Origin: Euglena gracilis
Lineage: Eukaryota
NCBI GenBank assembly: GCA_039621445.1
Contig: CP154954.1
Location: forward strand, 37,805,703 to 37,869,702
DNA: 64,000 bases
Reading direction: 5' to 3'
Under the pieces are notes generated by a model, which had not been told where the DNA came from, made no database searches, and saw only the letters and a list, made by a program, of their open reading frames with translations. This document shows, piece after piece, positions 1,941 through 51,878 of the stretch; positions within the stretch are counted from its first letter, which is position 1; every line of letters starts with the position of its first letter. A program made the position numbers and the translations under genes.

Positions 1941-2320
1941 TGTAAAGACAAGAACATGGCACTGGGCATAGCAGCAGACTGCAGAATGTACAATGTCATG
2001 CTAGATAGCACTATTCCATGTTCTGCAACACAAATTGCAGCATTAGGAATAGCCTATCCTATCTCGGATTTGCCTTCTCTTTTCACAGGTGGTATTATTG
2101 TTTTGTTTTGTGTTTCACAAGCCCAAACAGGCAAAAAGAAGATTTGGAGACTTGAACTCCGATAGGAGAACACAACTGGAACTGAAGTTCCAAAAATCAC
2201 ACCTGGTTTGCCTTGTGCTCTGCATAAGCCCAAAGGCAATATAAACTAATAGTTAAGTCAAAGAATTTCTTTTTTGTTACTCTCCTGGTTCTGTTCCCAC
2301 GCGAGGGTGTAAGTAGGCCG
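1941..2320 (+). repeat. Truncated 3' LTR related to LTR 8615-9118
   Basis: Starts TGTA after the PPT. 2209-2319 closely matches 8908-9018 (tgccttgtgctctgcataagcccaaaggcaat...taagtaggcc), with patchy matches upstream. Cut off at about 2320. Confidence 0.7.
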
Positions 2321-2559
2321 TTAGCGCCATCCTTGAGCTCGATTTTGCAAACACCGAAACGGACCGCGAATCGCGGGGTCGACGTCACAGGCGTAAACTG
2401 GGTTCTGCAGTACACCATGGAATCCGCAAGTAATTCGCGAACAATAGTCAGCAGACTTGGGGTGCTGGTCCGCACTCTCAATGCCCGCGGGAAATCTCCG
2501 TTGAGGGTGTGGCATCCCCATTCGTACCAAGGTATTCTTGGCGCACGCAAATCGGATAT

Positions 2560-2985
2560 TTCGAATGAGTCAAAGAAACAAACGCGAGAAATGATTTCTT
2601 TAACGGGTGGCAATAATATACCACAAATATCCTCAAATAGTGGTACATCAGCGGGTAAATCCCACCAATGGAAACACACATAGGATAATTGGTGAAACCA
2701 ATCCGCATTCGGATTGACGGGTATGAGGAGAGCTCCTCGCGCTTCATCGCGGAGGAGCTCCACCACATCCGGGATACGTTTTGGGGGAGGGTGCATCCAG
2801 AGCACCGTATCACCCCAAAATTTTAGAAATGTGTTGGACTGTCGCGACCAATATCGCGACAAGCGCGCATGTGCTTTTGATGAAAACCTATCAGTTTCCA
2901 ACGACAAATCGAAGGAATCAGCCAAAGCCGCGATTTTGAAGAACCATTCCTCCAAAATACGGTATTCACCAAAATTGAATTGTTC
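2560..2985 (-). CDS. DIRS/Dam-type DNA N6-adenine methyltransferase-like domain (part of ORF 2197..3057)
   Basis: GEYRILEEWF..ETDRFSSKAHARLSRYWS..LWMHPP..GALLIPVNPNADWFHQL..LFEDICGILLPP is colinear with the DIRS MT domains in this window (GDYTLNLNIF..EVDMFCTPSNKKFPKF..YANPP..CLLIVPHWASTSWWRQL..LFTNCWGEEMPPP). Confidence 0.8.
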
Positions 2986-3739
2986 CATACACGCACCGCG
3001 TAGGTGTCGACCTGGTTCGCGGGTTGAAGAGCGGTAACGCAATTCAGGGATCCGCAAACATAGGTCAAGGGTGTGTCATCCACACTCCCCAGGGGCATTC
3101 CCAAGGGTTGATGGGTTGGATGGGTGCATCCATCCAGTCCATATCATGCCGGATGGAGGTGGGGGAGGTGTGTGACACAGATTTCGTGGTCCCAAACAAC
3201 AAGGCAGTACCTCGTTGTTGGAGCACTTGGTGTACGGTCGCACACTGCGATCCGGAACCAAGTGTATGGGTGAGCGAAATCTTGATTAGTGTACAATAAT
3301 CTGGCTGGGCGGAAATTCTCCTACAGTGCACGCACTGGAAGGAAGTGTCAGGGTAGTGGTCCTGGTCGCGCATGTTGGTCTGGTGAGGGTGTGTGTAAAA
3401 GTTTGGATGCGCTTTTGTAGCTGCTGGGGGATGTACAGATGTATCTAAAAGCGATACATCTGGTGGAAAACGGCGTATTAGTGCAGCTTGGCGACTACTC
3501 GACACCGTTATATCTTCAGGCCTTTGGGCTTTCGTCTTGTAACCCAGTGGAACGAGGGTGGTACCGCTACTCGCTTGCCCTGCCTCATGGGGAACGGAAG
3601 TTGGTGTGCCAGTGGGCAGGGGGTGAACTTTCTCGGTACACCCGGTGTAGGAAACGTTGGTTGGTGTGGTTGGGTGAAGTTTCTTGAAAGCGGTGTGGAA
3701 AAATTGGTCATCGTCGCGGTTGAAGCCAGAGGTGATGAA

Positions 3740-4110
3740 GGTTTGGGGGGCAATGAAGAGATTGGTGATGTGCGCAAACCGTGGGAGTGGAAATCCACTA
3801 CCAGCCGGTGCTGACGTAAAAAGGGGTATCCCAGAATTACGTCAGAACCATGGATTCCGGATTCATATACCCAGGTATCCGGAAAATTTTGCGGTTGGGG
3901 GGGGGTGTGAGTGATGCTTGGGGATGAGGGGTAGGACAATATCCAAAAAGCATCCCCAGTCACCACCGCACATGGGGGTGCTGTCAGCCGTCGTAATTTT
4001 GATCGGCTTCCTGGCTTGCACCAAGAGGGGGGTTGGTATCAACCCGATCCGAAAAAAGTAGTGCAATGCGACAACCAGTGTCAATGAGAATTTAAATTTT
4101 GCACAAAAAA
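3740..4110 (-). pseudogene. Retropepsin-like aspartic protease (frameshifted)
   Basis: ILIDTGC, then KPIKITTADSTPMCGG and SDVILGYPFLRQHRLVVDF, spread across reading frames. Confidence 0.8.
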
Positions 4111-4919
4111 ATTGGATTTTGTTTTCCGCCTGGACTAAAAGTTCCATGGGGGGTAGGCAAAGTGAAGGGTCTGGCGAAAATACGTTTTCTTGCCAGCTTT
4201 CCCATGAACCTTTTCCTACTTCGCACAACATTCCCAGCGGAAATTTGGAGTGGGGGGTGGGGGACCCGAAAATATTCCGGGTACCGACCAGAAAGGCAGA
4301 TGGGCAGGGAGGGTAGGGTTGATCAGGTCCTACCTCCATCTGTTCATCAGCCAAGATGTCCGTGCACTCGGACCTCGGGCTCCCCTACCCCAAGTCCGAA
4401 CCGGCCGAATAGCTGGCTATGGGCCTTTTTAGAGTTATAAACGGATTTTAACGTGCGCACCGCCACGCGGGCCTCGTCGAAATCGGTATCCGTGGTCTCA
4501 TCCCCCTCCCTCCTCGAAGCCGGGGTGTCATCCTCCAAACAAGATATCTTTGAAACCGACTTTATGGCGGTTGGAGGAGTGACCCTTGTCACCGCGATTC
4601 ATACCGCGATGACGTTCGCCAGGGCGGGGAGAACGAGAACGCGGGCATTTGGATGAGTGGTGAAAACTCGATCCAGGAAGCGAACACCGAGATTTGTGTC
4701 GCGATTCTGGGTAACGGGGGGATCGGTTTCTCGATTTCCCGTCAAACCGTCGTGGTGAGCAGGTATCCCGTCGACCATGACCGGTGTATCGGGACTTTCC
4801 CGATGAGGATCGCGAAGAAGCTGATCCGCTTCGCGAACGCGATCGCGATGTCTCGCGATAAGAATCACGCTTCTTGGCCGGGGCGCCGGGTCCTACCCCG
4901 AGGGGTACCGTGTTTCCGC

Positions 4920-5216
4920 TCATCGGGGAACGGGGATCCGGGGGCTAATACCACCGGAACGGGGACGCGATGACCGTGAATTGCCCGATTGGCGTGAAAA
5001 TGCGGAGGAACCCGAACCCCGTGATGGGGTCGAGCCTCGCGGACTCTGAATACGCTTACGCGCTTCAGGATTAGGACAATCCCGAGACATATGTCCCGCT
5101 TTGTTGCACAAAAAGCACACTTTACCCGTGACTTGGTCCGAAGAACGCGGATTTCGCGTTTTCGATCCCGTGGGAGGTGAAGTGGGTGAAACCGGTGATT
5201 TTTGCAATGCGTTCAC
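4920..5216 (-). pseudogene. gag nucleocapsid region with CX2CX4HX4C zinc knuckle
   Basis: CFLCNKAGHMSRDC, followed by an S/R-rich low-complexity tail. Confidence 0.85.
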
Positions 5217-5317
5217 CGAACCAGCCGGTAATCCAGCGGTTGGGTGTGCGGTATACGCGGATTGAATCTGACCAAGAAGCTGTGATGGCTTCAGTTTTGC
5301 TTGGAAACGTAGTTCCA

Positions 5318-6638
5318 GACAAAAGAAAGAATAATTTCGGACTGTCTACAGTTAAATCGCCATTTCACCCCCCAGAAGTTCAGACTGGAACACATGGGAA
5401 GTATCTTTCCATATTTGAAAAGGTGTTGGTTCTGTTGAAAAATAGATCCGAACGATGCTTATTTTCACCTAAAGCTGCACAGCAGCCTGGAAAAACATGT
5501 TTGCATGCAATTGGGGGGGTAAATTTAGCTGTTTCAAGCTGCATGCTTTGGCATCAGCAGCCTGCACCAAAAATTCATGATTCAAATGAGAGTCTGGGAA
5601 AGAAAATGGAGAAAGTAGGGGAAAGTGGTTTTTTTCTACCTGGACGACATTTTGCTGTTAGCCCCCAGCAAAAACACAGCAGTCCAACATTTGGCAGAAG
5701 TGAAAAAAGATCTCCTACTGGCAGGTTTCAGATTAAACCTCCCCAAATCCTGTTTGGAACCCACACAGGAGATAAAACATTTGGGCCAGTGGGTCAATTT
5801 GAAAAAGACCAAATGGAAATTCCTCAGGAAAAACTGAAATCCTTAAGGAAGGAGCTCGGCAAAGTGCTCACAGCACAAAAAATGAGCTGCAGAAAACTCA
5901 GCTCCATTGTGGGACAAGTCAGAAGTTATTTAGTCTCCATGCCATTTCTCAGAATTCTGACAGATAACTTTGCAAAATGGTGGATCTGCACACAAAGTGG
6001 GGTTGGGACCACACCCTAACCATTCCCCAGGGGGCAAAGGTTCAAATTGTGGAATTAAAAGCATTGTTACAGCCGGGTGTTGGCAGGGCATTTCAATCCC
6101 AGGCCTCTCAAAAACTCTTTTCGGACAGCAGCACCTGGCAATGGGGGGGGGGGGTCTGGACAAAGATTCAGGGCAAAAGGTGCAAGATTTTTGGAGGGAC
6201 TTGCACGTCCCTCCTATCAATCAAAAAGACGTTGCAGGCTGCAGTGGAAACTGTAAAAGCACTAGACCACCAAACCAAAAGCACCAAACCAAAGCAAACA
6301 ATTGTGCTTCATGTGGACAGCCAAGTGGCTGTAAGTTATCTAACAAAGTGGGGAGGCAAAAAGCCCTACCTAAATTCCATCTTAAAACCCCTGCTCTATC
6401 ATTGCCAAGAAAAGAAAATCAATTTGCAGGTGGTTTGGGTTCCCACAAAGGAGCAACTGGCAGACTCCCTGACCAGGGAGCAAAAGGACCCAGGGGATTA
6501 TACCCTAAACCTAAACATCTTTCACCAAATTCTTCAATTATTCAGAAAGGACATCACCTCAGAGGTGGACATGTTTTGCACACCCAGTAACAAAAAATTC
6601 CCTAAGTTTGTTTGTCGATACCCCCACCAAGGGGCTTG
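5318..6638 (+). mobile_element. Internal fragment of DIRS retrotransposon (RT, RNase H, start of MT), degenerate
   Basis: FYLDDILL RT motif; LFSDSS and LHVDSQ..LADSLTR RNase H motifs; close reverse-complement match to 26440-27750. No termini. Confidence 0.9.
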
Positions 6639-7055
6639 TGACTCATGGGCGCTGAGTGCCCAAAACAACATAACCTAACCCAACCCAACCTGATGACTCC
6701 CCAGTTAGGATTAGGAAAATCTTATCAGGAATTTCAATCAACTGACTCCATCTGTCCCTGTGCAGGGCTCTGTATCTCTGTCTGTCACTCTGTCAGTTTG
6801 TGTGTTCAAGAATTATCTGGATCAGTTATCTGGAACAGATCATCTTACCCTTGGTTTGGACTTTGGTACTTTCTTCCTTTGTGGTTTGCTTGCATTGTGC
6901 TGGTGGATTAGCTGATTGCTTGTGTATTTTTTTATCAATTGGAAGGTGTGAGCCAACCAACACACCTGTTTCCACCCCAAAAACCCTCAAAAAAGAAAGA
7001 AAATGCAATTTTTAAAACAAGCCGCGAGAGGAATTGAACACAACCTGGGCAGGGT

Positions 7056-8339
7056 GAAGGTTGGGTTTTGGGTTATGGGTCCCCCCCAAAATTTGTTTTT
7101 TGGGTACCCCCCATAAAAAAACACCAAAAATTTGTATTTTTGGGACCCCCTCTTTGAAAAATTTAACACCTAGCCCCTAATAACCTAAAAAAGGCCAATT
7201 TTGGCCAAGGCAAGCGATTTTTTCAAATTTTTCTGCACCTGCGGCGCCAAAAGGGTTATCTCATTATCTCACCCCCTCTGGGCCCCCCGGGGGGTCCAGC
7301 CGGAGCAACCCCAACCCCCCCCCTCCCCCGGGCGCAGCTTTAAATAATCCCTGGGGCTGCAGCCAGAATCGAACGAACCACCGACCCCCCACGTGCAAAG
7401 CAGAATTCCAGTCCAACACGTCCAAAAGGATGGAAGCGCACCGGGGGAGGCAGTGCTTATGCAATGCCGGTGTTCATACACCGGGGGGAGGGGGAATGGG
7501 ACAAAAAAATTGTGGATTCTGATGAGGGGTGATCGTTGGAATCCAGACGATTATTTTAAGAGGAAAAATCATGCCCTGCAGAATTGTGACCTCTGGTTGG
7601 GGGGCAGGGGGGTGTGATCTAAAACCTCCCCCCAAACAATGCCCCCCCCCAAATAATCCCCCCCCGGGGTCCGCCTTCGGCCACCGAAATAATACCCTCC
7701 CCCCCCCCGGTTTCGGGCCGAAGGCCCGGTTTTTTGACCTGGAAATGTAGGTAAAAATCACAAACTCTGACAACGAAGTACGAAAAAAATCGATTTTTCT
7801 GCATCATCTGGCCTCCAAAATATGCTAAATTTCATGAGAAAGTACAAAATATGACCCCAAAGGGGGTTTTGGCACTATTTTTGCTCCTACGGAACGAAAA
7901 AATTTGGGAAATAATACCCCGCCTCTCGGGCCGGGACTTCAGGCGAAAAAATAACGCTCGGCGGGTATTCTTTGGGGGGGGGTTACATGTCTCGAACAGA
8001 AAATTGCCTTTTGGGGCATTTTGAAAGGCCTTGTGGCTGAAAAAAATTTAAGGATTCAAAATTGTGCTGACTAAACTAACTGGACTAACTGGGTGGGGGA
8101 AGGTCTGACTACTGGAAAAAAAACGCCAGAAAGCGTTTCAAGCAGGCGGGGAGTGTTCAGGACAACTCTGAGCGACAGTCCCTTTGTGACTTTGCGGATG
8201 TCGGCCATTGTTCCCCGTGGCTTTCTCTCATCGTCAATGGAGACCCAAAAATTTGATTTTTGGGTACCCCACCAATATTTTTGGGCCGATTTTGCGACCC
8301 CCCCCCCAAAAAAAATACAAAAAACAAAACCCAACCTTG
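7056..8339. mobile_element. Composite MITE (aaggttgggttttg / caaaacccaacctt TIRs) with nested insertions
   Basis: About 14-bp inverted termini; imperfect flanking duplication (ggcagggt / gcaggggt). Confidence 0.5.
7620..7986. mobile_element. MITE, same family as 58152-58553
   Basis: Colinear similarity (ggtttcgggcc.aaggcccgg.ttttttgacctg.aaatgtaggtaaaaatcacaa) and inverted taaacc..caaa / tttggg..gtta ends. Confidence 0.7.
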
Positions 8340-8614
8340 GCAGGGGTAAAGATCCTACGCAAAGGGGTGCCGTCCCCGAGGAACTGAAAACTCAGGGACA
8401 GGCCCCACGAATACAACATGGTCGCAGAGGTAGACTGCCCAATTTTGATTCCCCTCCAACATGCGGCTACGAACAACAAGCTGAAAAACGACCAGAAACT
8501 GAAACAAACTGACGCTGACATGCCAGCTGCCGAAACCGCCATCGCCAGGCTGGTGGAGCCGGCGGAGGGCAACTCAGCCATGTACCAACCACTGGATGTG
8601 CCAAGTGCCTTATG

Positions 8615-9118
8615 TGTACCAGGCAGCCGTAAGGCCATGGTACTGTGTATGTAGGTATAAGCCTACGGGCAGATATAAGTCTGAGCCCCATACACAGTAC
8701 AATGCGACGTGGTGTTCCTAAAGATGGCCAACGGCCTGAATTAGGAACACCTCACCTTTATTCTGGTTCTCCTCTCCACAGGTGGTATTTGTATTCTGAT
8801 TTTCTTCTTCACTTGAATTTCAAGTTTGATTTGTTTCTTTTGAAGTCCGAAACGGACAGCCAGGTCACTTGGAATTTTCTTTCTGTAGCCCATAGGGCTT
8901 CTCTACCTGCCTTGTGCTCTGCATAAGCCCAAAGGCAATAAAAACTAATAGTCAAGTGAAAGACTTTCTTTTTTGTTACTCTCCTGGTTCCGTTCCCACA
9001 GGAGGGTTTAAGTAGGCCCACAGGCAGTGGGAATAGAGTCAGGGGACGTTCACTTGTTAGCAGAGTAGCTTACGAACCTACACATACTTCACAAACAGAA
9101 AGACTACCAAGGAGTACA
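8615..9118 (+). repeat. 5' LTR (504 bp)
   Basis: Bounded by TGTAC...GTACA, followed 2 nt later by a PBS; homologous to 1941-2320. Confidence 0.75.
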
Positions 9119-9120
9119 CT

Positions 9121-9130
9121 TGGTAGCAGA
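9121..9130 (+). promoter_or_regulatory. Primer-binding site for initiator tRNA-Met
   Basis: TGGTAGCAGA is complementary to the 3' end (..UCUGCUACCA) of eukaryotic tRNA-iMet with an AGCAGAG acceptor stem. Confidence 0.75.
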
Positions 9131-9401
9131 TTCGGTTCCTTTCCTACGCCCCTTCTCCCCCTCATCTAAACAGGTGACTTCAAACAGTGAGTGGTGCTGA
9201 GCCTATAGGCTACAAAACATCCACGAGCTGTTTGGAGCCAACTTCCAAGCACAGGTACAAGCTTCAGGAGGTTCTGGGCAGTATACACTGCCACATCCTT
9301 CTAAGTTTGTTCCTTTGCTTACTTTTTGGGGTTTCTTGTGTTTGTTTCTGCAAAAAGATGTGGAGAGCTCAAGCACCAACACACTATTTGATTATTAAGA
9401 A

Positions 9402-12400
9402 TTGATAAGTTCTTTGAGAAAGTTTGATGAAGATTTTTCGCAGGAGTATACGCTCCAACCCAAGTGTGTGGCCCTATATGGGGCAACTCCCAGCTCTATT
9501 GAGCATCCCCTCACCCCAGTGGTTTCCAGCTCTATTGAGCAACCCCCCACCCCAGTTTTCAGCTCTATTGAGCATCCCCTTACCGTAATTTTCAGCTCTG
9601 CCGAGCATTCCCCCACCTCGCTTTCCAGCTCTATCGAGCATTCCCCCCACAGCTCTATCGAGCAACCCCCCACCCAACGGGTGCTACACCTAATGGTGTC
9701 CAGCTCTATCGAGCATCCCCCCATAGTGGCCAGCTCTATCGAGCAATTACCTCCAACACCCAGCTCTATAGAGCATTCCCCCACCGTTCCCAGCCCTATC
9801 GAGCATTCCAACACCCAAAGGGTGCAACACCTAACGGTATCAAGCTCCATGGAGCATCTCACCACCTATGAGTTTCCACACCTAACGGTGTTTGATTTAG
9901 GCGATAACCCCGCTGCACAATGGATTCAACGCCTATCGGCGTGTGGCTTTATCGAGCAACCCATCGCCCAGTGTGATTATCAGCCTTTGCTGCAAAGCCA
10001 GTCATCTTGTTGTACTTCTATGCATCCGGATGTCGCCACGGTGCCTACAGGCACAATTGACAAATGTCCTCCAAAGGACGACACACCCGCACAAAACTCC
10101 CATGGACTGAGCGAAAAATGGTGTGAGATGCAATCCAGCAATGATGCGGCATTTTTGCACATGCAACATAGTTTGCAAAATTTGTTTGCAAAAGTGGAGC
10201 CAACAACGGCACTTTTTGAGCACAAAAATCCTGATATGGGAGCTCTTGTTACCTTGAAGCAGTTCGATACCTTAGCTGCTGCATTCCAGGAAGCGCAACA
10301 GCGCATTATGCAACTGTGCCGTGAATCGGCAAATTTTCACCATATGCACACCCAACCTGGTGAAGGTTTGGCTTCCAGCACTTACGTGCAGCAACTGGAG
10401 GAAAGACTTTCCCGGTTGGAGCAAAAATCATGTAGGTGTGGTGAAAATTCTGCTGAAATAACAAGTTTTTACGCCCATATCACGAATATCGCAAGCAGGC
10501 AGGATGCTTACCACCAACGGTGGCAGAATAATATTGTTGACATCCAAACCGCAATTGCGGTGTTACAGAACCGCAACGCAGTACCATGTTCACATAATTC
10601 AGAATTTCAGCGATTTTCTGCAGATAAGCGTGATGAAAATCACCAAGTCAGAAAACAATTTAGTGACAGTCCGATACGGACCGAGGAAACAGTGAATCAG
10701 CAAGTCAAAAACTTGCAAAAAGATTTCTCGGCGCTATCCGCGCAAGTCTCGGGGTTTTTGGAACAGCCAGTGGCTGAAAACGAGCGGAATCCGCAACATA
10801 CCCCTCCTTCCAAACCATCTCCACAACTGGAGTCTATTTCCGAAGCGGTGCACACTCTAGCTGTGCGACTACGGGAATTGGAAAGTGGTTTTGGAAAAGT
10901 TTCGCAAGATTCCTGGTCTTTTTCTTGCAAAATCCCTCTTCGACGATATGTCCAAACACCGCAGGCGTATTAGGCGTTTGCAGGAAGATATTGGTGCAAT
11001 CGCCGATCATCTGAAAATTCTCGATGATTTGGAGAAACATTTTTGTGTCTTTGCAGAAAATTTGGATCAAATACACACGCAATTGCGATGTTTACAACAA
11101 AAAGTGTTGTAGGCACACTTGCCGCAGATTCCAGCTCCAAAAGCGCTAATAGCGCACCTTTTGCAGAGCCTATTGGCACATTGCCACAAAATTACGATTC
11201 TGCTCATTCAGTGGTCCCTCCCCCAGCGGTACCAGTCCCATTGGACCATTTTTTGGATGATGGGGTTGGTTTTCAAGAGAAAGCCAAGCAAAACCCTCAA
11301 AGAAATCGAAAAATTTGGGAATATGAACTTTGTCACGGTATGAACCGCACTCCTGCACATGGTATTGATCCTGAGATGCATCAGCATCACCGCTCACGTA
11401 TTCGTGATTCACCAAGTTTACAAGGTACCTATGGTACACCAAGCGGAATATTGAATGCGCATTCGCAACATACACCTAAAAGTACACTTGGTGCAACTAC
11501 CGAGGTACCCGCGCATAGTGCGGTTTTGCACCCAGGCCCATCCTCCGTAAATACCACCGAAGGGCCATGGGATTCTCAGAAAAATTCAAAGGAATCATCG
11601 CTATCACGAAAAAGGTGAAGCCCCAATGAGATGGTGACCCCACAGCGTGGAAACAGTTTTGGCGCGATTGGGAATATTATTGGGAATATTATTGGGATCT
11701 GAAAGGACAAACCCATAACGAAAATCCAGAGGTGATCAAAATGGAATTCATAGATTGTCTACCAAAAGATAAAAAGGAACGCGCTAGACAATTGGTCATA
11801 CGCTGGCACATTTCTTTTCAGGATTTGGTTGAGCAATATGCTTCATCATGTTCCAGTTTGGTTTCCAGAATCACTCTGGAGAAAAAATGTCGGCAATATG
11901 CCCCCCATGACCGAAAATGGAGGTCGATAGACCTATGGTACTCAAAATGGCTCTGTTTGGCAGCCGAAGTAGACGAGTTAGGTGAAACCCAAATGAAAGA
12001 GCAATTTGACACAGTATTGCACTTTACACCCAAACTCATCAAAGAATTTCACCACGAGGAACTCGCAGGACGTATTTTGACGCTCGATGAGCGATGGAAC
12101 TATGTTTCCAAACAGTTGAAGCTATCACAGCTTCTCGGACAAATCCAGTCGGCTTATATACCCGCTATCCAAGTCAGTTCTGTGAAAAAAGTGTCACACT
12201 TACCAAATACCGCTGTAGCGGAATCCAAATTGCGCAATTCGCGCTCTTCAGAAGAATTTTCTGACAAATTGTGCTTTTTATGTAACAGAAAGGGTCCTAT
12301 ATCTTGCAATTGTCCAAATCCCGCAGCGCGAAACCACAACACAAGAACAAGAGGATCAGCCTCAGATGATACCAGTAAATATCCGCACTCACGATCCACA

Positions 12401-12532
12401 TGTTCACTGTGCGGATCCACCAACCACCCCTCACCCAAATGTCGCTATGCGACCCCTCCCCACCCAAGCCAGAGTCATCGCGATATGAGTTGCAGTTCAA
12501 AAGATCATACTTCAGCCGAAGGCACAAGGTAG
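9402..12532 (+). pseudogene. Very long gag-like ORF1 (repeat region, coiled coil, capsid-like region, zinc knuckles), frameshifted
   Basis: ORFs 9402..10973, 11043..11618 and 11732..12532. Degenerate knuckles CFLCNRKGPISCNC and CSLCGSTNHPSPKC. Lies downstream of LTR and PBS. Confidence 0.7.
9490..9960 (+). repeat. In-frame coding repeat (SSIE[HQ]P) with variable spacers
   Basis: About 11-12 copies of agctctatYgagca, spaced by multiples of 3. Confidence 0.9.
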
Positions 12533-13440
12533 GTCAACGAACAACCTCTACCGAGGATTATCACTCGGCTTCGGGCAGGGAGGGGGATGATACCCCACGT
12601 AATAAAAGTGACCATCCCTACTTTAGCACTCATAAATTCAGAGGCGTATATGCGTCCAAAAAGTCAAGGGCTGATACGGCCATTGGTTCGGATTTTGAGT
12701 AAAGACACCCGAAACCCAGGGATGCGGACTACAGAGGCTACTAGAAAGGAGGTGACAGGAGTCATGACCCTAGTCATCCCCTGCCCAGTATCCTTTCTGG
12801 TCATAGTTCCAGGATTTTCCGGTGTCCCCGCTCAAAATTCTGCCAATTTTTTGACATATAGACAGTTTTGTGTTTCCGGTTGTGGTGCATCATGGGATAC
12901 GCCATGAATAACCTTGTGGTTGAATGGATTTACGCTCCAAGAATGCACACAGCTCCGCAAACTTCTTTCCCCCGCAAAAACTTCCACTATTCATCATTTT
13001 TACACACCGTTTTCGATGACAGCAATACCGTTTTCCACAACACTAACACCGTTTTCAACCCAGGGGTAAAGAGAAAGTGCCCCCCCCCCTACCCACCGCA
13101 TACTCACAAACGTTCCATATGCGGTAGGGGTAACAAGTAGCTTAACCCCCCATCGTTTCACTGGGTGCCAAGACGAAAGCCCTAAGGACTGAAATTCGAA
13201 TGGTGTCGAGCAGTCGCCCAGCTGCTTTCATTTTTCTTTTTCCACCAGGTTTGTCGATTGCAGACAATCCTGTACAACCCCCGCAGCTAAAATTCGCATA
13301 CAATTTTTCTTACACACTCCACCCCCCCCCAGACCAACATGCGCGACACCGACAACTACTCAGCACCTCCCCCCAAGGTGTGCACTCTAGGAGAAATTTC
13401 CACACAACCAACAACCACACACAAAAGGACATAACTGAAA
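12533..13440 (+). mobile_element. Post-gag region of the plus-strand LTR element, homologous to 3300-4530(-), protease deleted
   Basis: 12565-12720 matches the reverse complement of 4375-4530; 13140-13400 matches the reverse complement of 3310-3560. No DTG motif in between. Confidence 0.75.
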
Positions 13441-14971
13441 CCAAACTAACCACCACAACCCGCGCCTATGGCGCCCCCACCACTCAAGCGCCTATGGCGC
13501 CACCCACCCTCGCGCATATCGCAAATCTTGCGCATAATGCCCCCCCGCCGCGCTATGTGGCGCCCCCAACCACCGCGCCTATGTCGCTCACACCCCCGCG
13601 CATATTGCGCTCCCCACGCGCACAGCGCTCATCTCGTGCCTATTGTTTTGCACACCGTGCATAGCGCGCACCTCCCCGCCGCGCATAGTGCGCAGCCAGC
13701 AAACAGCCCCCCCCCCCACAAGATGCGCCCACCCCCGCCCTCCCCCCACACGTGCATAGCGCAAATCTCGCACAATTGTGTATACCTTACAAATGGGTAT
13801 CTGCCCAACCCAACCATACTATTTTGGGAATAAGTCCCAAAGATGTTTGTGTACAAATTTCACAATGGCATTTTTGTTGTTGATTTGCAAACCACATGCT
13901 CAAATGCGGATTTGGTTTACTTAAGCAACAAAAGCAACCAACCCCCCTCCTTTGACCACGAACTTGTTGGCCACATTGGCGAACACCAAAGGTGTTTTGA
14001 TCATTCAAGCGCACAATTGCGCTCACTTCAAATTTATTTGCAAAAACACAAGATGTGTGATAAGTTTTTGGGATACATTGCAAATACTGCATTTTTCCCA
14101 CGAACTTGCACAGCTTTGTAAAGAACAGCTATTTTGTGAACAAAATGGCCTTTTTCTTATTGCAGAAGTGAATCCCGATAGGGAAATAAGTTAAATTCCT
14201 TGAGAAAATCTGCAACATAGTTGCCCACCACCCAAAATGAAGAAAATTCATTCAAACACGCACTTTTTTTGGACTTACCCACTTAGCCTTAGGTCTATGT
14301 GACCAATACACCCTATGATGTGCAAGGCCTATGGGCCATTACCCATGTGGTCCATGGGTCCATAGGACCAATTTGCACAAATTGCAAGGACCAAAAGGAC
14401 CAAAGGTTCACAAATCCATATTATAAAGTGAAAAGTCCATAGGACCTCAAAAAATGGCACAAAAAGCCATATTGCGTGGCTGAAAGTGGCTGAAATCGCC
14501 AAAACAAGCCAAATAGGCTAGTTTTATGCAGATTTGCATAAGTTTCACTTTGGCATAGCCTCAAAACCCCCACAAAAGCTTCAAAATTTCTGGCACCTCG
14601 TACCATGAGGTTTTGATTGTATGTAGTAGTGCCTATGAGATAGAAATAAAAAGTTGTCTTTCTAGAATAAATTATGGAAGCTTGTAGCAAAATCTCACTC
14701 ACAGAGCCAAAAAAGGTCAAAGATGTACCTGAGCGCCTGTAGCTGGCCGATAGTCCATGTTACCCCTCATTCGAAAGCTCGTTCGATGAGCCGTCCAGCG
14801 GTGCAAACAAATCGCTGTAACTCTGCACGGTACTCTTATTTGAGGAGGTCGTGAAAAATTGAATTAAGCCCAGCCAATCCGGCCAAAAGCCAAATTTTGA
14901 GCCAGATCTTGTACGATTGTGTACCAGACTGACAAATCAGCCTGAAAGGCTTCTATACTGTTCCCTACATC

Positions 14972-16282
14972 GTTTCTGATGGCTAATTACCATTGGTTAC
15001 CAGATGGGCTAATGGCCATTTATTTGAACCTTTGGCAGCATTCGGCCCATTACCTCCTCTGTTTGGGCTATTAGGCCTGGTACAGTTCAGAGGGCTATAG
15101 CCCGCAATTTGGAGCCATTTTGACTCACTAGAATCGTTTTCAGGAGTACTTATGTGCAAATTTTCTTTTAAATCATCGATTTTCTACAATTTTCGGTGAT
15201 TGTTCTCTATTCTGGCACTCATATCCCTAACGAGAGTGACCATGAGGCACTATGCCAGAGTGGAATGCAAAGGGCTATGCTGATAATGGCAATTTTTCAT
15301 TTGCTCATGATGTAATAGACAGGTTTTACTTGTATGTTGATATTTTTGCACAATTTTACAGCTTTTTGGGTGATGTGGTATTATTAGACACCCAAATCCC
15401 AAAATCTGTAAAACAACAAACATGCAGTATTATTGGACACTCTCAACAAGCACTATGTACACTAGGCAAATTTGAAGTCTTAAATGACTCAAAATGCAAC
15501 AAAGTTGCACTTTTGGTGACAAAAATGCATCCCTCGGCGCAGATTCTGCATTTCTGCCCTAAATCCTGATAGGGATTTCCTTAAAAATCTGATAAAAGTC
15601 AGTATTTCTCAGTGGCATAGTCACCAATGATGAGATTTTGTCATGTTTGCAGTATTTTTTCCTGCTTACCACACCAACGGCATTCTTTTCCCCGCCCGCT
15701 TCATTCAGTGGGCCCTCTTATCGATATAATTCGGAGGACCCAATGGTCATCATCTGCAACACCAATGGTGTCATTCTGCAAGGTTTATAAGAACCATAGC
15801 TCAGAAATGGTGAAATCCAGCTTTTTTTTGACCCACATTTGGGATTCCCTGTGCAGATCACCCGCAAATTTTCTGAATGTTGATCAATCACCACGTATTC
15901 AGCGAATATTTCGCAAATCTGTTCAAAATTTCAGAGCGAATCATCAAATGGTGCGTGCCACAGCACCATATTCATTGATTATTGCTCATTTTGTGAAGTT
16001 CCCCCGTTTCTCATGTGTTTTTGTCATTTGTGACCTACTGGTCTGAACTCAGTGTCGCAATATGCGATTTTGACCACGTGTGCGCAATATGCGTACATGT
16101 GCAATTTTAGTTGTTTTTTTCTTGTGCACAATATGTGGATACCCACAATTTTTCATACGCACACTTTGCTTTTGGAGGTATCATGCCTCTGATTGTACTG
16201 AAAGGTACAGAGTGATGAATTTCACCGCACTGGAACAATGTTCTATCATTTTATGTGCATTCACAGTTTATTTGCGGTTTTT
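14972..16282. repeat. AT-rich dispersed repeat, copy 2 (about 380 bp extra at 15830-16211)
   Basis: Alignment to 1-944. It may extend further upstream. Confidence 0.9.
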
Positions 16283-19200
16283 ATGGTCCAGGGGTCCAAG
16301 TCCTGGACCTTGACCCGAACGGTGGAGGTCACCTGTTGAAACTCAGCAAAAAACACAACATGCCAGCCTTCAAAAAAATTCAGGATCCCAGAAGAACTGA
16401 TTCAGGACCTGGCGGGGTTCCACGAACGGCTACGGCAAACCAGCCAAGCCCAGGTCGCGCAGCAACAACCGCTGCAGCAGCCCAACCTGCCCGGAATGCA
16501 CGACAAAACATGCTCTCACAGCGTAGCCCAGAACTGACAGGTCAACAGCCAAACCCAGATTCAACTGACAAAAAAGATCCCGACCAAACATTCATCTTCC
16601 AAAACGACTGTGTGAACCGGTGTCCAAACTCCTGCTAGGGCAGGTCATCAGCAGAAAGAAATCAAAACAACTCCTCATTGAAGACCATGCTGTGTTGCCG
16701 GACGGCAAAAAAAAATGTTCCTACAGGCCCTGATTGACACGGGAGCACAGGCAAACCTGGTGATTAAGAACCTGATTGCCCAACAAAATTTCAGACGGTC
16801 ACAAAAACCCTTGGCCCTGATCACAGCGGACGGAACAAGGATGGGAGGACTACACGAAGTCATACTGGAACTGCAGTTTTCATCACGGCCAACTGGACAG
16901 CAGCCGCAGTGGTTCACCTATGAGGGCCAGCGATTGTAGGTGTGGGAAAACCCCCAGCTGGTGTTGTTCCATCCACGGACACCCGAGGATGGCATCCACT
17001 TCTATGTCAGCGTCATGGAACGTTCCAAGGGTGGACCATTCCTTTGTTCTGTCCGTGTTGTGCAGGAACAGAAACACAGGGAACAGAAAATACACCAACT
17101 TCAGAAAAACACTTCAGCGCTTCGAGCAATGAATTTGCAGATTCCTGCTGAACCGGGCCAGGACGAGGAAAGACTGTCCGAAGGCGAAACAACACTGGAA
17201 ATACTGGCAAGACAACTTCAGAAATTGGCAAAGAAATCTGACAGGGTTCACGGTGTTGTGGTGGTGCCAGAGCAACAGGAAACGCAAGGCGAAAAAGTGG
17301 CAGAACTGGTGAAAAAACTGCGGCAGAACTATGAAGTAGTGGTCTTGCGAGACAGAATCTACCCAGACCCCCCATAACGCGGACCACCGGGTTTTGGAAA
17401 GATCGAGCTGAAGCCTGGAACAGTGGCGAAAAAAAAAGACCCATCCACATCTCTAACCAATTCGTCCACCATGTCGATGAGCGCCTGTCAGCGTTCTCCT
17501 GTCATGTCCTGAAAGTGGAAGACGGGAGGAGTGACTGGTCCAGCCCCACATTTGTGGTGTCCAAAAAAGGTGGAAAATGGAGAGGGGTGGTTTATTCCAG
17601 AGCACTGAACGAGGCAACAATCACAGACGCCCATCCCCTCCCTAGGATACCAGGCATCCTAGTTCAACAAGGACAACGGGCCATGTACAGTGTACTGGAC
17701 CTGAAAGACGCCTTCCACCAGGTACCACTGAAAAAAGAGTCCAGACCCTACACCTGCTGCAGCACACCCAAGGAAACAAAACAGTGGAGAGTGGTGGTCA
17801 TGGAAATGAAAAACGGCGTACCAATTTTCCAGAGGGTGATCGAGTACAGCCTGGAGCAGGTACGTGATATTGCAAACCACTACGTGGACGACATTATTGT
17901 AGGAACCGTATGGCAGGGGTCTGAAGACAAAAACCTCGAACAACAGGACAAGTACATCAGAAGGGAGATGGAGGCACTGAAAAAAAAACAGCAACACATG
18001 GCAGACATCAAGAAATGCAAATTTTTCGTGAATGAGGTGTGATTATGTGGACACGTGCTCGGTGGTGGACAAGGAAAACCTACACCTGGGAAACTGATGG
18101 CCTTGGAGAAATGGGAGGAACCAAAAACGGTCACATCCCTGCGGGCATTCCTGGGATTCACAAACTACTACGCCTCATACATCCCAGGGTATGCGGAATT
18201 GGCAGCAGACCTGATGGAAAAACTGAAGGTAAAAAAGGGACAGGGGAAGAAAGGAAGCCTGACACCTGTGTTTTTAGGTGAAAAAGAGAGAAAATCCTTC
18301 CAGACCACCAAAGAAAATCTCCTGGGAAGCCTGAAACTGCAAACGGTGAACCCAGACAAACCGTCCATACTCAGGGTGGATGCAAGTGGCAGATCCGTAG
18401 GTGCGGCTCTGGAACAATTAGCGGAGGACACTGCAGATAAACCAGACCCAACAACAGCCATGACCAAGAAAACAGTACCCGTAGCTTTCTGTTCACAAAA
18501 CCTGACACCTGGACAGGTTCGCTCGTGGTCTCCTAGGGAGAAGGAGACCTACGCAGTGACCCTGGCCCTGCAAAAATGGGATTCCTGGATACAAATGCAA
18601 CCGGTACTGGTGTTTGCGGACCACAAGTCCATTGAGGCATGGGCAACGGAGGCGCTGGACACCCCCAGTGGACCAGCTGGACGTAGGGCTAGGTGGCACG
18701 AACTGCTTTCGCGGGTCGACATAACCGTAGCACACGTACCTGGCAAAGACAACACGGTCGCCGATGCCTTGAGTATGTGGGCCTACCCCGCCTCACAGGC
18801 ATTCGCCGACGTGAGTATCCACGGGAGTGAGGAGGACGACCGACTCATGAAAGAAATCATCAAACAGGAGGAAAAGGAACAGAAACCTTGTATGGTGATC
18901 AACGTCGCAGACCTGACACAGGCAAAAAAACAACTTCAAGAACCCGTCACTGCGGCCGTCACAACAAGGGAGGGAGCCAAAACGGGTGAAGATTCGCCCA
19001 CAGTTCCTGGTTCAACGGAAAATGATGACACCCCTCAGAAAAATTCAAAAACACCTCAAAAAAATGCAAAACGACAAAGAAATTGGTTGTGAAGGAAACG
19101 ACTGTGGTGGAACCAAGCAAAAAACTGGCTGAGGCAACCCCAAGGGAGACCACGGATGAGGCGGGAAAAATGATCCGACCAGACCAACCAAACAACAAGA

Positions 19201-19985
19201 CCCCAGAAAATTCAAACACGGCCGAGGGACCATCCACTGAGGAAGACCCACCAAAGCGAAGACCCCTGGAAGAGGACCCTGTGGAACCTCTAACAACAAC
19301 AGTCTCAACAAAACAACAGGACGGACAAGGTGCGCCGGCCTCAACGGGGACACCCGTTGGACCTCCATCAAGGGGAGTGCACGCCCCGGAGATCCAACAG
19401 GGGGAATCGAAAGGGGTGATGGACAGGGAATGGAAGAACGAGTATGAAAGTTGCCCAGTGTACCTGTGCTCAAGGACGTGAAGGAAACGGGTTGAAAAAC
19501 TGGCCTGACGGGTACCGATTCGACAACGGCAGGCTCTACAAAAACGGTCTCCTATGTGTACCAAGTGGGTTGACTGGAAATATAATTCGGTAACATGACG
19601 AAACAGCCGGGCACCCAGGGTCAGCCCGACTGTGGGACCAGATTGGAAAGTGTTTTGTGTTTGCGGAGCACCAGGATGCAAAAAAACTGACAAGCAAAAT
19701 GATGACGATGTGTGAAACCTGCCAAGCAGCAGAACACAGCCACCTACCATACAAGTGCCCCATTGAACCGACACCAATTCCTGCACACCTGATGGACAGT
19801 GTTGCCATCGACTTGTTCTCACTACCTGAAACGACCTTTGAAGGGAAGAAATACGCCACGTTGGCGTTGTGGGGGACAGGCTGAGTGGGTGGATGGTTGC
19901 AACCCCCCACCTGGCCAAGGGACTCACGGCAGAAAAGGTTGGAAAAGAAATGTTCAAACAGTGCGGAATTTTTGGGATGCCCTGA
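16283..19985 (+). mobile_element. Ty3/gypsy pol remnant (protease, RT, RNase H, integrase N-terminus), no LTRs seen
   Basis: ALIDTGAQANLV; WSSPTFVV..LDLKDAFHQV..YVDDIIV; VDAS..EKE..DHK..NTVADALS; HDETAGHPG..CETC..VAIDLF. Domain order is PR-RT-RH-IN. Contains stops, frameshifts and two inversions. Confidence 0.95.
17515..18780 (+). pseudogene. gypsy reverse transcriptase / RNase H
   Basis: ORFs 17515..18042 and 18055..19092 are separated by an in-frame TGA. Confidence 0.95.
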
Positions 19986-20286
19986 CACACGGACCCCGTG
20001 GGCAGCGCACAGTGTTTTCCACCAACCGGCTGTGAAATGGGAGCCCCGGTCTGAGCTCTACCACCGAGTAGGATGCGGTTTCTTTTTGCCGTCCAAAAAA
20101 ATTAGTATTTCGCATTCGTCAAATTTTTCCGTTTTTTTTAATCTTCCGTAACGATTGATGGCCCTTTTTTTCAGCGAATAGAGCAGTGCTTGATGCTCCT
20201 TTCTTCTTGGTGCCGAAGGGCAATTTAAGAATAAGCGGGACCTCCGGACCCGGCGAAACACAGCATGAGGGCCTCACAAGGGCAAA
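19986..20286 (-). mobile_element. DIRS element C: 5' remnant (continues at 29582-29600)
   Basis: cttcttggtgccgaagggcaatttaagaat matches the leader of element B (29426-29456). ggcctcacaagggcaaa + gtgcggagcccgaggggtc rebuilds a DIRS 5' terminus. Confidence 0.7.
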
Positions 20287-20689
20287 TCGAACTCCCTCGA
20301 GGCCAGCCGAAAAGTGATGAAGGGACACCGAGGGCGAAGCACAAAGACATTGTGAGGCCATGCCCTGCTCGCCGGCGGTTTGTTGTGTGATTGTTCGCTG
20401 CGCTGGGTTAGGAGGTCCCGCTTAGTGCCGCCTCGCCGGAGTTGGCTGCATTCTCTCCGACGTGACGACCATGGCGCTGTTTCTTTCTGTGGGGGGGTCC
20501 CACCACCCCCCCCCCTGGCCACCATCTTCTGACCGAGGGCGTATGAAGCCAAATTTTTGTATATGGGTGGGGGGGTCGGGCTCACAATGTCTTTGTGCTT
20601 CGTCCTTGGTGTCCCTTCCTCCCTTTTCGGCCTGCCTCGAGGGAGCACGAGACACCTCGGGCTACGCACTTTGCCATTGTGAGGCCAGA

Positions 20690-21620
20690 TTGTGCACTGA
20701 AAAAAGGGTGGCCAGGACATTCTCCAAAGAACCTTGGGCACCAAGTCTTTGATAATGGGCTGTGAAAGCCTCCACCCCCTTCCATTGACCAATTTCACAA
20801 ACTTCTTGGGCAGAAAGGCCCAATTTTTTTTTAGCAAACCAACCCCCTCTGGTGGAGTGGGGTCCCCAAACCTGGGGGGGGTACCCCTGTTTGGTCAAAA
20901 AGTTTTTGGTGATAGAAGCAATGGTATCTGCCTTAACGGCTTTGTAGGAGGGTTTTAACGTAATTAAAAAGGGGGCACCCAGGTTTCATAAAGAAACGTG
21001 TTGCTGCCACATGTGCCATAATTAAATGAAATGGGCTGATTTGGGGGCACTGGGGAATGGAGACAACTCGCTCCCACTTGTGGAGTTTTTGACCTTTACG
21101 TTTTATTTTGATGTAGGGTCCCCCACCCCCAACACACTGGTGGTTCTTTGGACCTGTGCCAAAATAGAACTTCTGTATAAGCAGAGGATTCGTGAACAGA
21201 AAATGGGTCGTGTACGCAATTTACATATATCAGAGGGCAGGGGGGACTGTGCCAGCCCCAGGAGGATTGGGAGGGGATCCCAGAATGCACCATATTTCTC
21301 CAAATTTTGGTTCCAAAGCCTTTTATAAGGTGCCAACATGGCATGGAACCTCAGGCCACCAAAGCCAGGGATCAAGAGCATAGCACTGTATGCATTGCGT
21401 GCTTGGGCCTTTGAAAATTGAAATAGTTGAATTAAAGCGTCGACCACTTGGTCAGTGGTGGCTTCAAGGGGGGGTACCCTCATTTTGTCCAAAATTGCCC
21501 ATAAAAGTGTAAAAGCGCTTTGATAACGCTTTAAACTGGGGTTTCTTCCCAGGAAATCGTTAATGGTCGAATTTTGTACTTGCTTCCCCTCCAAAATTTG
21601 CCTGAGCAAATCATGCAAAG
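20690..21620 (-). pseudogene. Tyrosine recombinase of element B (frameshifted)
   Basis: LCLYRSS, WGPHSTRG, GQWKG..FTAHYQRL. Confidence 0.85.
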
Positions 21621-22060
21621 CAGGGGCCACCAGGGGGGTGGCATTTTTTCCCTCCTGTAATTGGTGAACATACCCTTGTAAGGGGTGATTTTCAGGCAGG
21701 GGGTCCCTGGTACTTTCAGTTTTATTAATTGTGGCCAGCATGTGGCTGAATACCAGTAGGGGGTGACCATCAAAACTTTGGCTTCTGGAAACATTCTTAA
21801 TCTGGGGAGAAAATTTTGAATTACAGACCAGGGGGGGGTTTGCATAAAGATCCCTCATGTTGTCCAGTGGACAATGCAATGCATCCACTGCTGTGGCTTC
21901 CCAGTGGGGCAACCTGGCCACAAATTGTGGCAGTTTTTTGTTGCCTGGTGAGGCAAAAAGGTCTTTTTTTCATGTTTATGTCATTTTTGAACTGCTGACT
22001 CAGCCATTGAAAAAGTTTGGGGTCCAGGGAATAATCCCCCCTGTCCATTTCCCACCTGCT
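21590..22060 (-). pseudogene. N6-adenine methyltransferase-like domain of element B
   Basis: DRGDYSLD..AVDALHCPLDNMRDLYANPP/WSVI..VLMVTPYWYSATCWPQL. Confidence 0.8.
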
Positions 22061-23366
22061 TATGGGGTCTGCCAGGCATTCCTTTGATGGGACCCACTTT
22101 ACTTGCAGGTTTATGTTGTGCTTCATGCACCATTTGAAAAAGGGCCTTAGCATGGATTTGAAGGGGTCTTTTCTGCCCCCCCCCTTTTGTTAAGTAATAG
22201 TAAATTAATTGATTCTCCACTGACAGGGACACAGTTTCTCCTGGCTGGCTGAGGCTTTGAACTGTGCCTATTGCTGCACTTAATTCTTTGACATTTATGT
22301 GCAAAATGGAGTTGTCCCTCCAAAATTCTTGCACAATTTTGACTGTTCGAATGTGCAGCCCCCCCCCAGGCATGGGTGCTGCTGTCTGAGTGCAACTCCC
22401 TGGTTGAACTTTGGGGGAAGGGTCTGCCCCCCAGGTGTACAGCAGAATTTTTATTTCCCTTAATTGGTCCTTTATTCTTTGGGAAATGGGATGTTTTGAG
22501 TCCCAGGGGGCTGTGGAATTTTCCACCAAAAAATTTGCCAGGGCATCCGTAAAGGCCCTTAGAAATGGCAAGGCGATTATATTGCATCTGATTTGGCCCA
22601 AAATGGCAGCCAGTTGTCTTTTTGACATGTAACCTTTTTTCACCATTTTTCCCAGCTCCTTTTTTACTGTTTTTATTTTCTGGGAGGGGCACCTGTAATT
22701 TTCCCTCTTGGAAGTTTAGTTGAGATCCAAGGTGATTTACGATTTGGGTGGGCTCCAGGATGGACTTTTTCACATTGAGTTTGAATCCTGATTTAATTAA
22801 ATCCCTGACCACTGTGTTCAGGTGATTTTGTAAGATGTTTTGCGTTGGGGCCACCAGTAAAATGTCGTCCAGGTAAATAAATACCTGGATGCCATTTTCC
22901 TCCACATCTTTTCGAATGTCCTCATTACTGACATAAAAATCTGGGGCATTACATTCAGGCCAAAACAGCCTGCCTGTAATTCCCAGTTCTGCCCCCCCAC
23001 CTGATGTCTTAGAAAAGGCCTTAGGGCCTGGCTCACTGGGATGTGGAAGTCAGCATCCTTTAAATCTATTTTGGCTGCCCAGTGGCCTTTTTGCAAAACT
23101 GGAAAAATGTGCTGGATGTGATCCAGCTTGAAAGGTTTCACTTGGAACCTTTGATTTGTTTCCCTGCAATCGCTTATTAGTCTCCATTTTGTCTGTTCCC
23201 CTTCTGGTTTCGAAATCAGAAACCAGGGGATTAGATGCTGGGTGGTTGAATCCCTCACCCTCTTTACGGATCCAGATTTTTCGTAATCCCGCAGTATTTT
23301 TTCTGCTTGGTCCAGGTTCAAATTTGCCCTGGGTTTTGGGTGGGTGGACAATTTTTGTGGGTTCAC
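22050..23366 (-). pseudogene. RT / RNase H of element B
   Basis: KWRLISDCR, KIDLKDADFHI, CFGLN, YLDD, HINVKEL, LADPISR. Confidence 0.92.
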
Positions 23367-23491
23367 CCAAGGGGTTTGAATGCCATCCCTGATTAGTTGA
23401 CATGTTGTTGGGGGGGGATTTTTTCTCCACCATTTCAGGCTCTTTTGTAGCCTTTGATGGGAGGGTGTCTCCCCATTTTTCCTCCATGGAA

Positions 23492-24667: not shown

Positions 24668-24886
24668 TGCTCATTGAAGTCGAAATTGAAATTTGATTAT
24701 TGGCTTTTCAATTGATATTCCTCTGGTTCGTGTCCTTCTGGATATTGAAGTGGTATTTCGGACTCCCACGACAGAGAAAGGGGGAGGAAGGGACCAAGAG
24801 GGCGAAGCACAAGAAGATGGTGAGGTCCTGCTTTCCTTGCCGGCTGTTCTGTTCTGGTGTGTTTGTGCGTGCGCGGGGGGTGCTTC

Positions 24887-26389: not shown

Positions 26390-26610
26390 AAACTGGGGGG
26401 AGGCCCCTCAAATCTGCCTTCAAGGCATCCACCAGCAAAGCCCCTTGGTGGGGGTATCGACAAACAAACTTGGGGAATTTTTTGTTGCTGGGTGTGCAAA
26501 ACATGTCCACCTCTGGGGTGATTTCCTGTCTGAAAAACTGAACAATTTGGTGAAAGATGTGAAGGTTTTAGGTTTAAGGTTTAGGGTATAATCCCCTGGG
26601 TCCTTTTGCT
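26150..26610 (-). pseudogene. N6-adenine methyltransferase-like domain of element A (frameshifted)
   Basis: DPGDYTL..EVDMFCT..YANPPW..CLLIVPHWASTSWW. Confidence 0.85.
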
Positions 26611-51711: not shown

Positions 51712-51878
51712 TTACTGTACTTGCACCTTGTTCATGGCTTTGACGAATTCAGTGAACTGCACCAGCCCATCGTTGTTGCTGTCATAGACCTCAAACAGCT
51801 GATTGACTTTGTCCTCAGTGAGCTTCACATCTGATGCTTTAGCTAATGCTAATCCAAACTCGCTCTTTGTTATCGCTC
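51712..51878 (-). CDS. Probable terminal exon of an EF-hand calcium-binding protein
   Basis: (G)AITKSEF..LTEDKVNQLFEVYDSNNDGLVQFTEFVKAM*: canonical DxNxDGxVxFxEF loop. A CAG acceptor ending at 51879 falls inside the preceding EF loop. Upstream exons were not found. Confidence 0.8.

Follow-up and report, generated by a model that had tools for sequence, protein, structure and literature searches.

Does a methyltransferase-like domain lodged between the protease (PR) and the reverse transcriptase (RT) of a retrotransposon characterize a lineage of elements, or is it the trace of a local accident, and could such a domain still be an enzyme? This question is raised by a fragment, here named copy A, on the minus strand at positions 2321-5317 of a 64,000-nucleotide stretch of Euglena gracilis DNA (GenBank assembly GCA_039621445.1, contig CP154954.1, positions 37,805,703 to 37,869,702), hereafter called the window. 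Copy A is very probably a doubly truncated, dead DAM-LTR, that is, a remnant of a Ty3/gypsy-type long terminal repeat (LTR) retrotransposon with a Dam-like N6-adenine methyltransferase (MT) domain of phage/DIRS type in its Pol polyprotein, from a chromovirus-like lineage in which this domain lies between PR and RT. That copy A has the identity and architecture of a DAM-LTR fragment is close to certain. An earlier note on this DNA, made from the sequence alone, knew of no described family with this architecture. Such a description now exists in a preprint by Fernandez-Moreno et al. (bioRxiv 10.64898/2026.05.21.726589, 22 May 2026), in which Ty3/gypsy-type elements with a DIRS-derived Dam domain are named DAM-LTRs in a self-described first report. 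A full-text literature search found this paper only on the architecture.

The minus-strand order in copy A is CCHC knuckle, DTG protease, long linker, MT domain and the start of a gypsy-type pre-RT segment. The CCHC knuckle, protease, MT domain and pre-RT linker that the earlier note had read in this order are all present, at the following coordinates.

4400-5317, minus strand: C-terminal part of gag, with a CCHC zinc knuckle and an Arg/Ser-rich tail; its 5' end is cut by a DIRS fragment at 5317.
3800-4384, minus strand: aspartic protease, frameshifted, with ILIDTGC at 4071-4091 and DVILGYPFL at 3817-3843.
3068-3841, minus strand: PR-to-MT linker, open over 258 codons.
About 2520-2994, minus strand: Dam/DIRS-like N6-adenine methyltransferase-like domain, uninterrupted, within a 292-codon open frame at 2197-3075.
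2782-2799, minus strand: motif IV region WMHPPP of this domain; most relatives read NPP here, with F, I, L, V, Y or W as the fourth residue.
2321-2519, minus strand: MT-to-RT linker and first residues of the RT-leading segment, with one frameshift; cut at 2320 by another repeat.

The CCHC knuckle (CFLCNKAGHMSRDC, 5076-5117) matches Pfam zf-CCHC (E 2.3e-6, 27.9 bits, cut-off 20.8), and the gag part matches positions 12113-12379 of copy B, an element described below (tblastn E 1.2e-19). Both protease motifs of the earlier note, LIDTG and DVILGYPFL, were found. They are in separate frames, and the stretch between them passes through the third frame; thus the protease of copy A is frameshifted. 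No Pfam protease match was obtained for the pieces of copy A themselves. The PR-to-MT linker contains a conserved PLGYKTKAQRPEDI block at 3509-3556 and a decayed Cys motif, FQCVHCRRISAQPDY, at 3296-3340. In the MT domain, whose stretch is uninterrupted as the note had stated, four blocks are recognized: ETDRFSS (2878-2898), the motif IV region, in which the note's reading of MHPP was correct, LLIPVNPNADWF (2695-2730) and WWDLP (2653-2667). After a frameshift come VYACDVDPAIRGPF at 2357-2398, in the shifted frame, and CKIELKDGA at 2323-2349. These resemble ...RIYPDPP*RGPPGFGKIELKPG just upstream of RT in a gypsy element near 17.37-17.43 kb of the window, in agreement with the likeness to the gypsy at 17.4 kb that had been pointed out.

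Both ends of copy A are cut by other, unrelated repeats. On the left, 2209-2319 is 93% identical to 8908-9018 of the window, and on the right, 5317-5600 is 86% identical to the DIRS element at 27751-27467. The boundaries at 2320 and 5317 are exact, and the limits 2321 to 5317 given by the note stand. Only 9 residues of the RT-leading segment remain before copy A breaks off at 2321, so the RT is missing, as the note had also recognized. Since it has frameshifts in the protease and after the MT domain and has lost RT, RNase H, integrase and the 5' part of gag, copy A is dead and unable to function. As a single locus it is a dead fragment without function.

The architecture of the lineage was read from relatives of the MT domain. 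We used the 224-aa MT stretch (P0001) as a phmmer query in an exhaustive search of 1.84 billion representative proteins, which gave 180 relatives at E<=1e-3 and 62 at E<=1e-10, the best at 7.8e-39. Word-index protein searches with the same stretch found nothing among longer or similar-length proteins, and the relatives came from the exhaustive phmmer search only. A Pfam scan covered 87 phmmer hits and cluster members (24 + 59 + 4), many of them short fragments, of which P0109 and P0147 are spurious low-complexity matches. Dam followed by RVT_1 was found in 11 of the 87 (P0006, P0017, P0022, P0024, P0025, P0031, P0033, P0063, P0097, P0152 and P0159). Five of these 11 (P0017, P0031, P0097, P0152 and P0159) continue into RT_RNaseH and integrase, and P0152 and P0159 have a C-terminal chromodomain. 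Weak protease matches precede Dam in four of the 87 (P0003, P0014, P0046 and P0067), those of P0014, P0046 and P0067 being to RVP. Neither a tyrosine recombinase (Phage_integrase) nor an RT upstream of Dam was found in any of the 87 scanned relatives, many of which are short fragments.

P0159, an intact protein of 1677 aa, has the complete order: PR (VLIDTGS), a PGHKTK block, the Cys motif, Dam (459-529), RVT_1 (712-882), RNase H, Integrase_H2C2/rve, SH3_Tf2-1 and Chromo (1616-1651, E 1.2e-9). It is colinear with copy A in tblastn, residues 8-329 falling on 4270-3296 (E 7.7e-16) and residues 434-669 on 2970-2314; P0006 gave E 4.5e-20 for the protease part. The matches of P0159 beyond the MT domain are in two frames (2970-2314 and 2509-2357), which is the frameshift after the domain. 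The MT module lies between PR and RT, about 110 residues before an RT-leading IELK(E/D)GAKP segment. According to the earlier note, a Dam-like module of DIRS type placed between PR and RT would be a regular feature of a gypsy-type lineage. This is borne out by intact P0159 and by the same order in P0017, P0031, P0097 and P0152, and the single open reading frame with PR, MT, RT, RNase H and integrase that it anticipated is seen in P0159 and not in copy A. The outcomes that the note had named as refuting its idea did not occur: there are matches to methyltransferase families, the domain is present in other copies and in the relatives, and full copies run into gypsy-type RT and integrase rather than DIRS-type RT and tyrosine recombinase. 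A search with P0159 for DNA loci in JGI metagenomes gave no confirmed locus.

A Cys motif, C..C.R.(6-10).DCGC, about 150 residues upstream of Dam is another common character. It was detected by pattern in nine relatives and by eye in P0003, the carriers being P0003, P0005-P0008, P0010, P0030, P0053, P0158 and P0159. The motif could be a small zinc-binding module. We also built a FastTree phylogeny of MT domains with the motif IV columns excluded. Of 155 profile hits, the 103 with 100 or more filled columns entered the tree, and the 52 shorter ones did not. Copy A falls within a 14-row clade (support 98) that holds P0002-P0012 and the LTR-type P0159, and adjoins P0002 (support 95). A fragment 63% identical to the MT domain of copy A sits in a protein cluster containing EP00667_Euglena_gracilis_P027005 (EG_transcript_32993). 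A different order was seen in P0142 (JGI/IMG record, 1114 aa), in which rve, Dam and RVT_2 follow one another in a copia-like arrangement with Dam between integrase and RT; it fits the preprint's description of 'Chloro-Ochrophyta'.

It may be asked whether the likeness to Dam is fortuitous, or whether the MT-like stretch belongs to some unrelated domain. The search against Pfam Dam (PF05869) suggested by the earlier note did return a match for copy A (E 0.008), but its 16.3 bits are under the 28.1-bit gathering cut-off, and the Dam match extends over only about positions 20-110 in a model of 169 positions. When the family profile (alignment A1) was compared by sequence with solved structures, there were 0 matches at E<=10. 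These two results would fit a chance resemblance, but three independent libraries (Pfam, PHROG and TIGR) point to phage-type N6-adenine or DNA methyltransferases. PHROG 111 'DNA methyltransferase' matches copy A at E 2.1e-4 and the relatives at E down to 9e-19, and TIGR01712 (phage N6-adenine methyltransferase) matches relatives at E down to 3e-9, still under its own cut-off. Moreover, many relatives linked to copy A, at E down to 7.8e-39, exceed the Pfam Dam cut-off, for example P0066 (47.2 bits) and P0024 (39.7 bits), and the blocks D-x-F-[AS]-S, NPP-x and P-x-W-x4-WF of the relatives are colinear with the Dam profile. A chance likeness or an unrelated domain is therefore very improbable, and we take the stretch as a Dam-like MT domain.

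The next alternative concerns how the domain came to its place, and it requires the neighbouring retroelements of the window.

11630-13410, plus strand: copy B, a more diverged element of the same kind as copy A, with gag, CCHC, PR and the linker up to the Cys-motif region, then truncated.
16721-19089, plus strand: gypsy-type element without Dam between PR and RT; PR at 16721-16849, RT and RNase H at 17428-18987.
5317-6700 (plus strand), about 21100-24700 (minus strand) and 24890-29137 (minus strand): three copies of DIRS type, in which RT, RNase H and MT fragments are present.

A chance piece of DIRS might have been inserted between PR and RT of one gypsy copy, or the fragment might be a misassembly. 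DIRS fragments with MT domains are indeed present in the same window, one of them abutting copy A at 5317; the preprint suggests nested insertions as a possible source of some Euglena cases; and no MT domain is visible in copy B. As for copy B, its positions 13410-13037 match 3302-3670 of copy A with 73% identity (blastn), but it is merely truncated at 13410, upstream of the expected start of the MT domain, so it is silent either way. The DIRS copies nearby are not close kin of the domain. A profile of the LTR-type relatives, which scores copy A at 179 bits by construction because its sequence is part of the profile, finds the DIRS MT fragments of the window at 26104-26580 (minus strand, E 1.2e-4), 26346-26567 (minus strand, E 1.5e-4) and 5968-6675 (plus strand, E 3.7e-4), which upholds the colinearity with the DIRS MT domains that the earlier note had reported. 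Plain tblastn of the copy A MT domain against the window's DIRS MT domains gave no match at E<=0.01. Since tblastn was blank and the profile reached E values of only about 1e-4, the domain, as judged from these comparisons, belongs to the DIRS/phage Dam family yet is a distant relative of the neighbouring DIRS copies.

Intact polyproteins from independent records, with the same order, linker blocks and Cys motif, also speak against a one-off chimera, as do two DNA runs. Contigs at least 80% alike on 2000-5700 numbered 24,381 in run X1 and 30,717 in run X2, and 30 of 30 bins were covered. At 2846-3250, the passage from the linker into the MT domain is crossed by diverged contigs of 360-719 nt with about 85% identity, and 2391-2693 is spanned by one contig. 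The DNA runs show the abundance of each part and continuity at the bridged junctions, no more. On these grounds, namely the independent polyproteins, the junction-bridging contigs and the distant kinship to DIRS, the one-off chimera was rejected, and we give it hardly any credence.

The reading of copy A as a DAM-LTR fragment also has points that weigh against it, in addition to the low Pfam score and the blank structure comparison. RT, RNase H, integrase, LTRs and the 5' part of gag are absent from copy A, so its assignment depends on homologues and on the 9 RT-leading residues. Around copy B and its gypsy neighbour (7000-21000), a search for LTRs as direct repeats of at least 60 nt found none. 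The methyltransferase fold of the domain is deduced from sequence families. The summed depth of the contigs does not equal copy number, and unrelated flanks are equally deep. The stretch attracts few RNA reads (107 of 12.9 million in run X21 and 159 of 8.3 million in run X24), and most are less than 90% alike and continue into unlike sequence. In both runs the reads are too few and too unlike to call copy A expressed. With respect to function, the catalytic Asn of motif IV is missing from 43 of 137 relatives, including intact P0159 (HPMF), and, in the preprint, heterologous expression in E. coli gave no gain of N6-methyladenine (6mA). In a separate observation on the RNA runs, about 14 X21 reads at 3116-3270 have common fixed differences and unlike sequence at both sides; they look like a diverged family fragment within another transcript.

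Can the domain methylate? In active N6-adenine methyltransferases, motif IV has (D/N)PP and then a residue that is aromatic or hydrophobic. This requirement is also given in the preprint. Copy A reads HPPP, with His for the catalytic Asn and Pro for the aromatic or hydrophobic fourth residue. Because of this motif, the domain encoded by copy A is most likely not an active methyltransferase. In an hmmalign-based count, 137 of 155 aligned relatives had all four columns; the first position holds N in 94 rows, H in 25, C in 13 and some other residue in 5, and 46 read NPPF. HPPP was found in copy A, in P0013 (69% identical to copy A), in P0045 and in one further relative.

These counts bear on the possibility that the architecture is as described above, with the Dam module of the chromovirus-like clade being non-enzymatic and kept as a DNA- or 6mA-binding or structural piece of Pol, catalysis being dispensable for transposition. 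In copy A's 14-row clade the first residue is N in 9, H in 4 and Y in 1 (about 8, 3 and 1 when each of two near-duplicate pairs is counted once), and in the tree the H rows are scattered within the clade with no common grouping. P0159 reads HPMF even though its polyprotein of 1677 aa is intact. Elsewhere in the tree, a 10-row subclade is all H (HPPD/HPPN) and a 6-8-row subclade is all C (CPPF). None of the 13 scanned members of copy A's clade reaches the Pfam Dam cut-off, the best being P0011 (27.0 bits) and P0002 (26.6 bits), and the negative E. coli assay points in the same direction. On the other hand, NPP with a hydrophobic or aromatic residue is retained in most relatives, as the 94 rows with N and the 46 with NPPF indicate. 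Many of the database proteins are single contigs and possibly decayed copies, so some substitutions may reflect decay and not selection. The preprint reports higher 6mA on DAM-LTRs, including those of E. gracilis. We consider a non-enzymatic module somewhat unlikely. A further group in the tree has NAPF or NGPF; it includes P0152, an intact chromovirus polyprotein of 1991 aa.

For intact DAM-LTRs, in distinction from copy A, it is possible, with a little less than even chances in our analysis, that the elements write 6mA on their own DNA. In this mechanism, which follows the model of the preprint and is the leading one here, the Dam module would be produced as part of Pol, and its substrate would be the DNA reverse-transcribed from the element itself or the RNA-DNA intermediate. 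New insertions would then carry 6mA or attract the 6mA machinery of the host, and would sit in transcription-permissive chromatin. According to the preprint, DAM-LTR insertions of E. gracilis and of two ichthyosporeans carry more 6mA, and its model is that the domain marks reverse-transcription intermediates, by which insertions enter 6mA-marked permissive chromatin. The suggestion of the earlier note that the domain might mark the cDNA of its own element coincides with this model. Activity has so far been shown for none of the retrotransposon Dam domains, as stated there.

A bolder proposal can be made for the lineage of copy A. It may belong to a divergent Dam-carrying chromovirus clade, probably euglenid, that the published screen largely missed, in which the Cys4 motif was conserved and the Asn was replaced several times in intact polyproteins, so that the module would have ceased to write 6mA and become a non-catalytic component of Pol, such as a DNA or 6mA binder. 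We think this unlikely as a whole. One element of it can be compared with numbers: the preprint's screen with hidden Markov models (HMMs) was run at an E-value of 1e-5 and gave a set of 10,030 proteins, and in our hmmscan only 2 of 13 scanned members of copy A's clade (P0002 and P0011) reach Dam E<=1e-5. By this measure the clade may be under-sampled by the published screen.

The present data confirm from raw sequence, and independently of the one preprint that had claimed it before, that a DIRS/phage-type adenine MT module occurs in gypsy-type LTR retrotransposons. They add lineage detail, namely the position between PR and RT, the conserved Cys motif that precedes the module, a divergence beyond standard HMM cut-offs and a catalytic Asn that is often missing. 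If it is true that Asn-less variants sit in active elements, the idea of self-written 6mA needs revision for copy A's lineage.

The remainder of the window was surveyed as well. The DIRS element at 24890-29137 has an intact 506-aa tyrosine-recombinase open reading frame (Phage_integrase) at 24890-26407 on the minus strand and an MT fragment at 26104-26580; the recombinase is 96% identical to EukProt EG_transcript_21508 of Euglena gracilis, the next best match being 56%. CpG observed/expected ratios are 1.03 in copy A (2321-5317), 0.77 in copy B, 0.59 in the whole window and 0.23-0.33 in the DIRS-rich 20001-28000; thus the neighbouring retroelement families differ strongly in CpG decay. A tandem array at 36000-47500 consists of 5-6 copies of a unit of about 2.1 kb, mostly 96-100% identical, and a satellite at 32370-35703 has a 77-79-bp unit with 111/155-bp higher-order periods and about 40 copies in total. 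The sole non-transposon coding signal seen is an open frame at 51715-52170 on the minus strand that ends in an EF-hand pair (Pfam EF-hand_7, E 7.5e-9) and is possibly an exon for a calcium-binding protein of the host. No Rfam match was found in the window.

Among known systems, the closest to copy A are the DAM-LTRs themselves. Common features are the Ty3/gypsy-type LTR element, the DIRS-derived Dam-like domain in Pol, a chromodomain in some members, occurrence in Euglena gracilis and a proposed 6mA role. The preprint infers at least four captures from DIRS, reports DAM-LTRs in Euglena gracilis and a Euglena DAM-LTR/DIRS group with chromodomains in some members, and finds Metazoa and Streptophyta to be without DAM-LTRs. 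Copy A encodes a Dam-like domain, and its lineage is without tyrosine recombinase in the scanned relatives; the union of Dam with gypsy RT, RNase H and DDE integrase in one polyprotein is found at the level of the lineage, in P0159, since copy A ends before RT. Several points differ. In the main text of the preprint the word protease has 0 occurrences and a location of the domain between PR and RT is not put in words, whereas here the module lies between them. That main text makes no mention of a Cys motif, whereas copy A's clade has one upstream of Dam. The Asn-Pro-Pro triplet is said there to be retained in almost all DAMs, in contrast to the 43 of 137 relatives that lack the Asn here. The preprint also describes EpiLTRs, which have a DNMT domain; no DNMT domain was found in P0159.

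The DIRS1 group has an MT domain of the same family, and that of copy A is colinear with the DIRS MT fragments of the window. DIRS elements carry it downstream of RT and RNase H, together with a tyrosine recombinase, and are not known to have a protease or an integrase. The DIRS element at 24.9-29.1 kb, with its MT fragment and Phage_integrase frame, fits this layout. Copy A does not: its MT domain precedes the RT-leading segment and it has a DTG protease, while its relatives have a DDE integrase and a recombinase in 0 of 87. It is thus not a DIRS retrotransposon. Phage-type N6-adenine methyltransferases (PF05869, TIGR01712 and PHROG 111) share colinear conserved blocks with the domain, and NPP-x is the motif IV of most relatives, whereas copy A has HPPP. 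With chromoviruses, the relatives P0159 and P0152 share PR, RT, RNase H, integrase and Chromo, the RT-leading segment of copy A is similar to the one in the Dam-less gypsy at 17.4 kb, and the RT and RNase H of the latter (17428-18987) are 34% identical to those of P0159. Compared with this gypsy at 16.7-19.1 kb, the lineage of copy A has about 500 extra residues between PR and RT, which comprise the linker, the Cys motif and Dam.

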